NCBI GenBank assembly: GCA_048937405.1
Contig: JBHLNF010000008.1
Coordinates: 1-64,000, forward strand
Source: Promethearchaeota archaeon
Lineage (GTDB): Archaea > Asgardarchaeota > Lokiarchaeia > Sigyniarchaeales > SOKP01
DNA: 64,000 nt
Direction: 5' to 3'
Each line of letters opens with the position of its first letter. Position 1 is the first letter of the stretch. This document shows, in pieces, positions 16,359-18,901 of the stretch. A program made the translations under genes and the position numbers. A model generated the notes under the pieces. The model had not been told where the DNA came from and ran no database searches. It saw only the letters and a program-made list of their open reading frames with translations.

Positions 16359-16697
16359 TTATAAAAAGTCATTTGAATTAAAACGATAAGCTGCTCTGGT
16401 TAGTCCCACATAGTTATCACTAATCTTATAATACATTTTACCATTAACTATTTTTTTCTGTAAATAACTATTTTTTATTGTGTGATTTAATCCATGAATC
16501 ATAGTACCTAAAGTAACTGCTCCAATATACTCATGTTGTTTTTTTGTAATTCTTATTAATTCCAGTTCAGAATGCCATTGACCATCGAGAAGTGCTATAA
16601 GTATCTCGTTTTTTATAGGAGTTTTAATATCTTTAATTTTATTGAATAGATTAGAATAACTTGGCTTATAAAAGCTTTTATTATCGAGATTTGTCAT
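16359..16697 (-). CDS. Small hypothetical protein, probable winged helix
   Basis: EILIALLDGQWHSELELIR helices followed by a KKIVNGKMYYKIS wing-like hairpin; basic. Confidence 0.6.
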   Translation of the reverse strand: MTNLDNKSFYKPSYSNLFNKIKDIKTPIKNEILIALLDGQWHSELELIRITKKQHEYIGAVTLGTMIHGLNHTIKNSYLQKKIVNGKMYYKISDNYVGLTRAAYRFNSNDFL

Positions 16698-16815: not shown

Positions 16816-17937
16816 TTAAAGGAGGTTTGGAGGGATCCCCTCATTATAAAATTTTGCTCGTGTTATCCAGTTCTGAGAAAATTCTGGAATCATTGCTAGA
16901 ATTGATCCTCCAATCCATACAGAAAACGTTCGCTCCATAGGAGCGATAATTCTTATAACCTGATTTTTTTTCTTTCTTCTTGCTAATTCTATTTCTAATT
17001 CTTGATAGATACGTGATTTCAAATTAGGAAACATAGAGGAACCGCCTGAAAGAAAAATATTATTTAATAATTCAGGGCGGATATCTACGTCACAGTTCTC
17101 AATTACATCCATAATGGCTATATGTAATGCATCTTCCTCTACCTCTGAGGTAGGATTAAATAATATTTCTGGTACAATAAATCGCTCTTTATTAAGAGAA
17201 ATTGTAGATCCATCTGGTAATGAATATTCTTTTTCATACTGCTCACTTCGTTTAAGATCTTCTTTGTAATCTAATGAAATAAAACATGCTTTTTCTTTTA
17301 GAACTCTTGCTAATTCTCTACGTATTGAAGAGTCAACAGACCATCCAATTGATTCTAGAACTTGTTCCATATGTCGAGTTAAAAATCTTCCCCCTATATC
17401 TAAGATACGTACCGCATGTTCTAATTTATATCCTTCATAAATAGGAACTATTCTTGTATTACTATCGCCAATCTCAACAATTAATCCTGTTTGAAAACCC
17501 CCAGAATATAGAGTTAGCATGGAATCTAAAACTGGATAAAATGACATACATTGATAACGTTCTAAGAATAATTCAAATATTTTCTCTAAATCTTTATATG
17601 GAAATAGAGGATGTACAGCAAATAAAACATTAACAAGTGTAGGATCTACTCTAAGGTTATAGAAAATATAATCAATTATATTCGCAAAATGAGTCCAATC
17701 TACAACAATTCCTTTTTCAATTGGATGAAAAATTTTATATAATCCTATTGATTGAATTTCATCTCCAACATATATCTCATTTTCACGGGAACTTTTAGAT
17801 TCATAATCTACACTTACATTTTGATATTTTGGTTTACCAACCATTGTTAAAAAAACTTGACTAGGAGAGTCTTCTCCTGCAAATCCAATTTTTGAAGAAA
17901 ACTGCCCAATATCTAAAACAACTGTTAAATTTCCCAT
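16816..17937 (-). CDS. Actin-related protein (Asgard actin family, divergent)
   Basis: VLDIGQFSSKIGFAGEDSP, YVGDE, PIEKGIV, VPIYEGY, LKEKACFI, YSLPDGSTI, ERFIVPEILF, CDVDIR, LSGGSSMFP, SVWIGGSILA: colinear with actin over 373 aa. Confidence 0.95.
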   Translation of the reverse strand: MGNLTVVLDIGQFSSKIGFAGEDSPSQVFLTMVGKPKYQNVSVDYESKSSRENEIYVGDEIQSIGLYKIFHPIEKGIVVDWTHFANIIDYIFYNLRVDPTLVNVLFAVHPLFPYKDLEKIFELFLERYQCMSFYPVLDSMLTLYSGGFQTGLIVEIGDSNTRIVPIYEGYKLEHAVRILDIGGRFLTRHMEQVLESIGWSVDSSIRRELARVLKEKACFISLDYKEDLKRSEQYEKEYSLPDGSTISLNKERFIVPEILFNPTSEVEEDALHIAIMDVIENCDVDIRPELLNNIFLSGGSSMFPNLKSRIYQELEIELARRKKKNQVIRIIAPMERTFSVWIGGSILAMIPEFSQNWITRAKFYNEGIPPNLL

Positions 17938-18199: not shown

Positions 18200-18901
18200 T
18201 TATTCTCCTCTCATAATTTTCTTTAAACGATTTAATTCGTCTAACATTTCATCACGAAGAGATCCTAATCCACCACCTTGTTGTGGGGCTATTGCTGGTG
18301 CTGCTGGACCAGGAGGTCTTGGAGGTCCACCACCAGGGGGACTTGGTCTCTTTGCAAATGCAGTTGGTGCCGCAGGAGGGCCTGCACTTGAGGGACTACC
18401 AGGTGCTTTAGGGGGTCCACCAGCGGGAGGTAATTTCGGTGCAGGAGGCAAACTTGGTTTCTTTGGAGGGCCTGCACTTGAGGGAGTACCAGGTGCTTTA
18501 GGAGGTCCACCACTTGGAGGAGCTGCTGGAGGGCCTGCCTTTTTGGGAGGTCCACCACTTGGAGGAGCGGGAGCTGATGGAACAGCAACGGTAGGAGCTC
18601 CTGTAGGTGTAGATGCTGGAGTGGCACCTCCACCACTACTTAATAAACTAAATAGAGTACTAGCTGCCGCAGTTTTTGCACCTTCACTTGTTGGTGCTAC
18701 GATTTTTTTAGAGGAAGTACTTACGGTTTGAACTTCTTCAACAACTGAAACATCCTTTAAATCCTTTTGAGCTTTAGCTAAAGATTTAATAAAATCATTA
18801 ATTCCTTTAATAGTTTCTTCTAGATCATCAGCTAAAGAAGTTAATCCTTTTTTCATAAAATTAATAACTCTTTCAACTTTTTTCTGTTCTTTTGAGACCA
18901 C
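18200..18901 (-). CDS. Coiled-coil / proline-rich protein with C-terminal WH2- or VASP-like helix; putative actin regulator
   Basis: N-terminal amphipathic helix of about 50 aa; about 110 aa rich in P/G/A with GGPPK and AGPP repeats; tail GGGLGSLRDEMLDELNRLKKIMRGE; GTG start with upstream GAGG. Confidence 0.65.
   Translation of the reverse strand: MVSKEQKKVERVINFMKKGLTSLADDLEETIKGINDFIKSLAKAQKDLKDVSVVEEVQTVSTSSKKIVAPTSEGAKTAAASTLFSLLSSGGGATPASTPTGAPTVAVPSAPAPPSGGPPKKAGPPAAPPSGGPPKAPGTPSSAGPPKKPSLPPAPKLPPAGGPPKAPGSPSSAGPPAAPTAFAKRPSPPGGGPPRPPGPAAPAIAPQQGGGLGSLRDEMLDELNRLKKIMRGE
18375..18568. repeat. Intragenic direct repeats encoding the Pro-rich units
   Basis: 48-nt copies at 18375-18422 and 18465-18512 (2 mismatches); GGAGGTCCACCACTTGGAGGAGC at 18501 and 18546. 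Confidence 0.85.

Follow-up and report, generated by a model that had tools for sequence, protein, structure and literature searches.

The minus strand of a 64,000-nucleotide stretch of contig JBHLNF010000008.1 (Promethearchaeota archaeon, assembly GCA_048937405.1; hereafter the window) carries a gene for an actin-related protein (ARP; open reading frame P0001, Table 1) that belongs to a lineage-specific family of a single Asgard order, the same order as the cultured 'Candidatus Lokiarchaeum ossiferum'. The gene is intact, and its strongly selected, actin-fold product is a third, distinct paralogue beside the two Lokiactins of the same genome. Its residues suggest, with a probability of about 0.5, a nucleotide-binding, hydrolysis-impaired accessory ARP and not a bulk polymer; its barbed-end groove would dock a partner, most plausibly the pointed face of Lokiactin, with the ARP acting as a filament seed or cap. 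Below, f1 is the window's own family and f2 its sister family in the same Asgard order.

Against the Pfam Actin profile (PF00022) the ARP scored 300.3 bits (cut-off 27), residues 5-367 covering positions 6-401 of the 410 in the profile. Only conventional actins and no Arp were found among the best 60 matches to solved structures in HMMER alignments, the top one being the Asgard 'HC1 actin' 9wc4 (E 2.6e-87). An AlphaFold2 (AF2) model, for which 37 family members were the input, reached a predicted local distance difference test score (pLDDT) of 85 and a predicted template modelling score (pTM) of 0.85, and pLDDT values below 50 were confined to residues 42-51 of the DNase I-binding loop (D-loop). 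When the model was used in a structural scan, actin (4pl7_A) came first (Z 43.1, root-mean-square deviation 1.6 Å over 340 residues, 38% identity), followed by Arp3 (27% identity), Arp4 (25%), other nuclear ARPs (19-26%) and crenactin (20%). The four-subdomain actin fold was thus borne out by the model and the scan. The ratio of nonsynonymous to synonymous substitution rates (dN/dS) was 0.03-0.07 against 19 congeners, with dS saturated.

The window genome (29 contigs, 4.47 Mb) contains five actin-family genes: a canonical Lokiactin, a second Lokiactin copy, the ARP, another ARP with a zinc ribbon, and a very divergent homologue. The sequence-only reading of the window had held that the ARP is not the main filament actin, and this stands, given the canonical Lokiactin present in the same genome, an identity to it of only 41% (35-44% to Lokiactins generally), the topology tests described below and the lower transcript level of the orthologue in L. 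ossiferum. Lokiactins are 67-100% identical across the phylum and are expected in all Asgard classes, neither of which holds for the ARP. Furthermore, the Lokiactin-type residues N12, S/T14, G15, H73, Q137, G158, V159, H161 and R177, together with the HRCF end, have all been replaced in it.

We searched 300 genomes across the phylum, classified on the basis of GTDB. Matches at 46-100% identity to the ARP were found only in the order of the window, in 66 of 68 f1 and all 7 f2 genomes (46-58% identity in f2), and the frame is uninterrupted in almost every genome of the order. Outside the order the best matches were 41-46% identical to the ARP, and the 15 that were fetched all proved to be Lokiactins, with 67-79% identity to the Lokiactin of the window genome. 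The NCBI labels of some close homologues ('Thor-', 'Odin-', 'Heimdall-', 'Hermod-', 'Hodarchaeota') were not accepted as a sign of a pan-Asgard range, since they conflict with the GTDB-based distribution. The conflicting labels sit on homologues 74-90% identical to the ARP, and labels of metagenome-assembled genomes are probably unreliable here. In a representative library of 1.8 billion proteins the family forms one cluster at 50% identity, the next matches being at most 49% identical. Sequencing runs that contain this DNA were DNA metagenomes from sediment and mangrove, with no RNA run listed among them. The full actin set was checked in five genomes; Lokiactin and the ARP were present in all of them and the zinc-ribbon ARP in all but one, which is 76% complete. 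The ARP changes much faster than Lokiactin, as seen by comparing their identities in the same genome pairs (ARP/Lokiactin 89/100%, 72/98%, 62/96%, 56/88% and 49/91%). The ARP is functional, under a selective regime that is different from and looser than that of Lokiactin.

Trees were built with Lokiactins, eukaryote-type actins and the ARPs, and approximately unbiased (AU) tests were run on a set of 40 rows. Of ten cluster representatives among the tree leaves, three bore names (a Tritrichomonas actin, a generic 'actin' and an Arp-T2-like protein), and a feature search of the ESM Atlas gave generic actin clusters. With f2 included and the site-heterogeneous C20 model, the ARP family formed a clade (support 100) whose stem measures about 1.0 substitutions per site. 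Under two models this clade fell outside the one that unites Lokiactins and eukaryote-type actins (support 93-96). Grouping inside the Lokiactin clade was rejected under both models, firmly when the ARP was placed with the Lokiactins of its own order (p=0.0007 with LG+G4, p=0.005 with LG+C20) and more weakly when it was placed with all Lokiactins (p=0.010 and p=0.030, respectively). A clade of the ARP and the zinc-ribbon ARP was not rejected (p=0.36, LG+G4). Divergent eukaryote-type actins, which appeared as neighbours of the ARP in a first quick LG tree, were dismissed as a case of long-branch attraction, and this join disappeared with f2 and the C20 model.

Departures from actin are found around the nucleotide. 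Residues were numbered by alignment against canonical actin, using 37 family members (32 from f1 and 5 from f2) and, for comparison, 17 Lokiactins from at least 14 GTDB families. The changes that had been proposed from a manual alignment, namely DNGSG to DIGQF in the phosphate-1 loop (N12I, S14Q, G15F), Q137 to D (D138 of the ARP), DSGDGVTH to EIGDSNTR in the phosphate-2 loop (D154E, G158S, V159N, H161R) and H73 to K (K75 of the ARP), were all recovered, in HMMER alignments to solved actins and in the numbered alignment. Two more were added to that list, R177I and D184F. Positions N12, S14, G15, H73, Q137, D154, G158, V159, H161, R177 and D184 are invariant in the 17 Lokiactins, and the replacements at these positions are fixed or nearly fixed in the 32 f1 sequences, a substitution pattern that is far beyond chance. 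In the phosphate-1 loop the phenylalanine at the G15 site (F13 in protein numbering) is present in 36/37 members and the lysine (K16) in 37/37. The lysine at the H73 site is confined to f1, where 25 of 32 sequences carry it, while the site is unconserved in f2 and is histidine in 17/17 Lokiactins. The Q137 site is aspartate in 32/32 f1 sequences; among the five aligned f2 sequences three have G and two D. D157 is retained in f1 and is A in the aligned f2 sequences. Twelve positions are invariant in all 37 members (D11, G13, K18, G74, G156, G182, R210, K213, E214, G301, G302, R335), and these make up the pocket for adenine and ribose together with the core contacts to phosphate and metal. What unites the family as a whole is therefore H161R, an aromatic side chain in place of G15, retention of the adenine pocket, remodelling of the barbed-end groove and a C-terminus ending in LL, and the traits restricted to f1 are the lysine at the H73 site, the fixed aspartate at the Q137 site, the retained D157 and a basic insert.

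In actin, Q137 and H161 place the attacking water, and H73 and R177 gate the release of phosphate. With the adenine pocket kept and Q137, H161, R177 and H73 lost, we infer that the ARP binds ATP or ADP without polymerisation-stimulated hydrolysis; the altered ATPase activity predicted by the sequence-only reading is a sound deduction from these residues. The solved structures of divergent ARPs are titled as holding ATP (Arp4 with ATP, Arp8 ATP-bound, Arp7/9 with ATP), indicating that divergent ARPs commonly still do so. The differences between f1 and f2 at the D157 and Q137 sites suggest that hydrolysis chemistry is not what selection maintains in this family.

The surfaces that actin uses in filaments have also been remodelled, and unevenly. 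The acidic plug, PTSEVEED, had been recognised correctly and is one residue shorter than that of actin, and the HR(K)CF end is absent as proposed, the protein ending in GIPPNLL. Two other claims hold in part. A longer D-loop is found in the window genus (+3 residues), but the loop is longer by one residue or not at all in other genera, and in f2 there is a deletion. The LARRKKKNQ insert does exist, as four residues after actin position 322/323, but it is basic in f1 only, f2 keeping its length without the basic charge. In the barbed-end groove the changes S145G, R147F and S350P are family-invariant: G146 and F148 of the groove wall (protein numbering) are found in 37/37 members, and so is P351 of the floor, while the T351 site is acidic in 35/37. 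In subdomains 4 and 3 (SD4 and SD3) the LPDG and CDxDxR motifs, respectively, have been retained.

To measure surface constraint we took sets of positions, calculated the f1-f2 identity of each and compared it with random sets. Over all numbered positions this identity was 0.52 in the ARP, against a Lokiactin identity of 0.77. The barbed-end groove with the W-loop and C-terminus reached 0.63 in the ARP, a value attained by 3.3% of random sets (Lokiactin 0.90). The lateral and plug positions were the least conserved set in the ARP family, at 0.33, and only 0.2% of random sets were equally low (Lokiactin 0.68). The D-loop and SD2 gave 0.44, which is not significant, with 20% of random sets equally low; in Lokiactin this set exceeds the mean of the protein (0.85 vs 0.77).

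The family is already on record in the literature. Three actin homologues of L. ossiferum have been published as clustering with the ARPs of Asgard archaea and eukaryotes (Rodrigues-Oliveira et al. 2022, PMC9834061); UYP44126.1 is one of them, and it is the orthologue of the window ARP. The identification was possible because the published reverse-transcription quantitative PCR primer 82F matches exactly inside a 373-amino-acid open reading frame in a 6.0-Mb genome of the same order, and YYPVRGA, encoded by primer 443R, is found in the same frame. This frame is 49% identical to the ARP over 372 residues (E 6e-136), and f2 members that share the signature motifs of UYP44126.1 group with the ARP at a support of 100. 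In 'Ca. Lokiarchaeum ossiferum' the UYP44126.1 transcript is several-fold below that of Lokiactin, and the cytoskeletal filaments have been assigned to Lokiactin (PMC9834061). The functions of Asgard ARPs were stated as unknown by Akıl et al. (PMC7444086), and in the literature searched we found no residue-level description, range or evolutionary rate of this family. UYP44126.1 shares with the window ARP the D.GQF phosphate-1 loop, the arginine at the H161 site, the GGF groove motif, the 4-residue insert and an end other than HRCF. It differs, in the f2 manner, by G at the Q137 site, S at the D157 site, the lack of the basic patch and a shorter D-loop, and its upstream neighbour is a gene for a Ras-family GTPase and not for a proline-rich protein. 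In this way a protein family widespread in metagenomes is linked to a gene of a cultured organism.

Taken together, these features are best accommodated by an ARP that most likely still binds adenine nucleotide but would no longer have the machinery by which actin couples ATP hydrolysis to polymerisation and gates the release of phosphate, nor the constraints of the canonical two-stranded filament, that is, the lateral plug contacts and D-loop insertion. Such losses would make it most likely a low-abundance accessory subunit, nucleotide-locked or slowly cycling, and not a bulk polymer. The conserved but remodelled barbed-end groove may then dock one specific partner. We consider the pointed face or D-loop of Lokiactin the most likely one, in which case the ARP would be a pointed-end cap or a nucleation seed; alternatively the groove might hold an amphipathic helix of a regulator. 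The hypothetical role as template, cap or scaffold that the sequence-only reading had put forward is compatible with the pattern of surface conservation.

Several points weigh against this proposal of an accessory subunit. Nucleotide binding, lost hydrolysis and partner docking are all deduced from the residues, and the acidic D138 of f1 could keep hydrolysis going, or even uncouple it, instead of abolishing it, because an acidic residue at this position is the usual catalytic base in ParM, MreB and Hsp70. The SD4-SD3 longitudinal contact has largely been kept on both sides (LPDG on one; C285, D286, D288 and R290 on the other), so an actin-like longitudinal contact, self-association included, might still be formed. 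In any protein the surface is less conserved than the core, and the D-loop deficit alone is not significant. The placement of the ARP outside Lokiactin could partly reflect long-branch attraction because its stem branch is long. Finally, when the f1 and f2 neighbourhoods were compared, no neighbour conserved across the whole ARP family was found.

Table 1. Location of the ARP gene, its altered motifs, its neighbours and the other actin-family genes. Positions without a prefix are those of the window; residue numbers are those of actin unless stated otherwise.
Feature	Location	Strand	Basis
ARP coding sequence (P0001), complete, 373 aa	16816..17937	-	ORF, Pfam, AF2, dN/dS
Phosphate-1 loop DIGQFSSK (actin D11-K18); D, G and K retained; N12I, S14Q, G15F	17890..17913	-	alignment
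D-loop region PKYQNVSVDYESKSSRENEI; length and sequence variable; Lokiactin-invariant M44 lost	17773..17832	-	alignment, AF2 pLDDT
IEKG, H73 site = K75 (protein numbering)	17710..17721	-	alignment
VLDSML, Q137 site = D138 (protein numbering)	17515..17532	-	alignment
YSGGFQT, barbed-end groove wall; S145G, R147F, T148Q	17488..17508	-	alignment
Phosphate-2 loop EIGDSNTR (actin D154-H161); G156 retained, H161R invariant	17452..17475	-	alignment
'Hydrophobic plug' PTSEVEEDA, acidic, shortened	17128..17154	-	alignment
LARRKKKNQV, 4-residue insertion on the subdomain-3 barbed face; basic in f1 only	16957..16986	-	alignment
ILAMIPEFSQNW, barbed-end groove floor; S350P, T351E, M355N	16867..16902	-	alignment
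C-terminus GIPPNLL in place of actin/Lokiactin ...HR(K)CF	16819..16839	-	alignment
Winged-helix-like protein, 112 aa, directly downstream of ARP	16359..16697	-	
Proline-rich protein, 233 aa, with conserved C-terminal LRDEML.ELNRLKKIMRG helix, directly upstream of ARP	18200..18901	-	
Canonical Lokiactin (L001), 381 aa, DNGTG...HRCF			441 bits vs Pfam Actin
Second Lokiactin copy (L002)	contig C7:555879-556991	-	
Zinc-ribbon ARP (L004), 507 aa	contig C8:41769-43289	-	
Fifth actin-family gene, very divergent homologue, 398 aa			
PIG-L genes upstream of ARP in other genomes	L042:7117-7869, L045:5213-5962, L044/L047:7180-7926, L006:4190-4936		
Ras-family GTPase genes upstream of ARP in f2	L083:1790-2359, L041:5066-5656, L043:7267-7860		Pfam Ras, 1.8e-41

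Concerning the other actin genes, the second Lokiactin copy is open from ...ISVNGDFRNNRAIVIDNGTG to HRCF, with none of the codons ATG, GTG and TTG ahead of the phosphate-1 loop; its first listed start gives just 333 amino acids, from MPDVKDY. It may start at a non-canonical codon, or it may be a duplicate whose N-terminus is damaged. The zinc-ribbon ARP carries an insert of about 100 residues with several CxxC zinc-ribbon motifs that weakly match L37ae, RpoP and Zn-ribbon models, and its catalytic loops are also altered (DIGSAYVK, ESGDGLTW). Its true orthologues are confined to the same order as those of the window ARP.

The gene order around the ARP in f1 is proline-rich protein, PIG-L deacetylase (absent in the window genus), ARP and winged-helix-like protein, the last one convergent with a topoisomerase IA gene. 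The winged-helix-like protein matched no Pfam or NCBIfam family, and strong orthologues (E <1e-30) were found in f1 only, where, in the genomes compared by coordinates, a gap of about 100-140 bp separates the gene (112-125 amino acids) from the ARP upstream of it; in genus g3 the two are 0.7-5 kb apart. Features of the proline-rich protein are a highly conserved helix at its N-terminus, invariant LPPAPKLPP and FAKRP motifs and a C-terminal GGGLSSLRDEMLEELNRLKKIMRGE. Its family is found in all f1 and f2 genomes, and weaker full-length matches exist in Asgard classes that lack the ARP (15/19 genomes in f14, 4/6 in f21, 3/5 in f10 and 3/4 in f5), indicating that it is older and broader than the ARP. 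The proline-rich protein was accordingly downgraded as a dedicated partner of the ARP, from which it lies 44-70 kb away in f2, and is more likely a general partner of Lokiactin or profilin.

The PIG-L gene (GlcNAc-PI de-N-acetylase family) directly precedes the ARP on its strand in several genera of f1 and in genus g11 of f2, with gaps of 64, 54 and 15 bp and one overlap. It is the most widely shared neighbour although it is missing from the window genus. In g11 it is the only one of the f1 neighbours that remains, overlapping the start of the ARP or 15 bp away from it. Genera g10 and g12 of f2 have, in three of the four genomes examined, including that of L. ossiferum (g12), a Ras-family GTPase gene directly upstream on the same strand, within about 130-320 bp; in the fourth it is about 4 kb from the ARP. 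Beyond this gene there is one for a divergent protein of 464 amino acids that ends in a zinc ribbon. As a family-wide partner the GTPase was also downgraded, since there are 57 Ras-family genes in the window genome, the best orthologue lying on another contig.

Among the alternatives to an accessory subunit, a second, specialised filament-forming actin that makes its own non-canonical polymer (possibly single-stranded or differently paired) with altered nucleotide kinetics seems unlikely, though several observations speak for it. Actin-2 isoforms, crenactin and ParM-like systems offer precedents for such separate polymers. The ARP is nearer to conventional actins (38% with the best solved one) than to any solved Arp representative (19-28%), keeps the longitudinal motifs LPDG of SD4 and D286/D288/R290 of SD3, and is under strong purifying selection, and the acidic residue at its Q137 site recalls the catalytic base found in actin-like ATPases of bacteria. 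A polymer of its own is at odds with the lateral and plug positions being the least constrained (0.33 vs 0.52) and with a D-loop that has lost M44 and differs in length among genera. The supposed catalytic residues D138 and D158 are, moreover, unconserved in f2, and in L. ossiferum the transcript is several-fold below that of Lokiactin and only Lokiactin-type filaments have been reported (PMC9834061). A decaying or functionless duplicate has next to no probability: many Lokiactin-invariant residues have indeed been lost and the divergence is far above that of Lokiactin (e.g. 72 vs 98%, 49 vs 91%), but the selection data effectively refute it, with the low dN/dS (0.03-0.07) and a frame that is intact in nearly all genomes of the order. 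The new residues R161, F147 and P350 are family-invariant, F15 is present in 36/37 members, and the orthologue is transcribed in culture (PMC9834061), none of which would be expected of decay.

The remaining two alternatives give the ARP a defined partner. It might pair with the 507-amino-acid zinc-ribbon ARP in a heterodimer that seeds or branches Lokiactin filaments in the manner of Arp2/Arp3, having evolved independently of the eukaryotic Arp2/3. The true orthologues of both are confined to the same order and were found together in the genomes checked, bar the 76%-complete one; the two-ARP clade was not rejected (p-AU 0.36), a conserved barbed-end groove with a variable pointed end would suit such a complex, and branched protrusions are reported for L. 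ossiferum (PMC9834061). Yet the two genes are never adjacent and lie on different contigs in the window genome, and the shared restriction to one order amounts to a single evolutionary event, so we put this pairing at long odds. A DNA- or chromatin-linked module such as Arp4/Arp8 or ParM/ParR, formed with the downstream winged-helix protein beside topoisomerase IA, is very improbable. The closeness of the winged-helix-like gene (about 100-140 bp) and the restriction of its strong orthologues to f1, paralleled by the equally f1-specific RRKKK patch, would fit it, and Arp4 is a close structural match (Z ~39.7) that was solved with ATP bound (3qb0). The f2 orthologues, L. ossiferum included, have neither the winged-helix neighbour nor the basic patch, however, and the two genes are already separated in genus g3. 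Arp4 is, at 25% identity, no closer in sequence than other ARPs are, and the synteny among close relatives may simply be inherited gene order, since conservation there extends to the topoisomerase and a PAS kinase.

Returning to the accessory subunit, a wider possibility, on which we would place rather low odds, is that this one order has evolved its own nucleating or filament-end machinery independently of Arp2/3, the ARP seeding or capping Lokiactin through its groove either alone or with the zinc-ribbon ARP. Control would then come from family-specific regulators linked to the locus, which could be the proline-rich protein in f1, through its WH2-like C-terminal helix, and the Ras-family GTPase in two f2 genera including that of L. 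ossiferum. If this is true, Arp-based nucleators would have a prokaryotic analogue, with an input like that of nucleation-promoting factors or through a GTPase. In any case the family may bear on the nucleation, capping and organisation of the Asgard Lokiactin cytoskeleton, and the contrast between its family-wide traits (adenine pocket, R161, F15/F147, groove) and its local ones (D137, K73, basic patch, D-loop length) provides targets for mutational and biochemical work. Being lineage-specific, and with no link to a eukaryotic Arp emerging from trees that contained no labelled Arp1-10, the family leaves the picture of eukaryogenesis unchanged.

Compared with known systems, the ARP shares with Lokiactin the fold, the length, the adenine pocket, K18, D11, G156, LPDG and CDxDxR. 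Lokiactin is invariant at all catalytic and phosphate-gate residues, whereas the ARP has changed at about 11 of them, has a remodelled groove, lacks HRCF, is relaxed in its lateral and D-loop contacts, evolves at many times the rate of Lokiactin and is confined to a single order. With crenactin (4bql) it has in common an archaeal actin fold (Z 34.5), but the identity is 20% and the NCBIfam crenactin model scored 39.5 bits against a cut-off of 630, so that an assignment to crenactin is clearly ruled out. The nuclear Arp4 and Arp8 (3qb0, 8a5d, 4fo0) match it structurally with Z 32-40. They hold ATP with little turnover, and their barbed-end groove binds a helix of a scaffold protein. The ARP differs from them by an identity of only 19-25% and by the lack of their large insertions, and its sole hint of chromatin is the neighbouring winged-helix gene of one family. 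Arp3 of the Arp2/Arp3 complex (1k8k) is also a good structural match (Z 40.7, 27% identity), and as in Arp2 and Arp3 the groove is conserved and the D-loop divergent, while the sequence-only reading would also place inserts of Arp2/Arp3 at the site of the LARRKKKNQ insert; the ARP is nonetheless more similar to actin (38%) than to Arp3 and its range is a single archaeal order. In Arp2/Arp3 and in the nuclear ARPs that bind an HSA helix the barbed end is conserved and the pointed end is free. The combination found here, a constrained but altered groove with a free pointed end and lost lateral constraint, is one known from Arp2/Arp3 and from those nuclear ARPs that clamp a scaffold helix.

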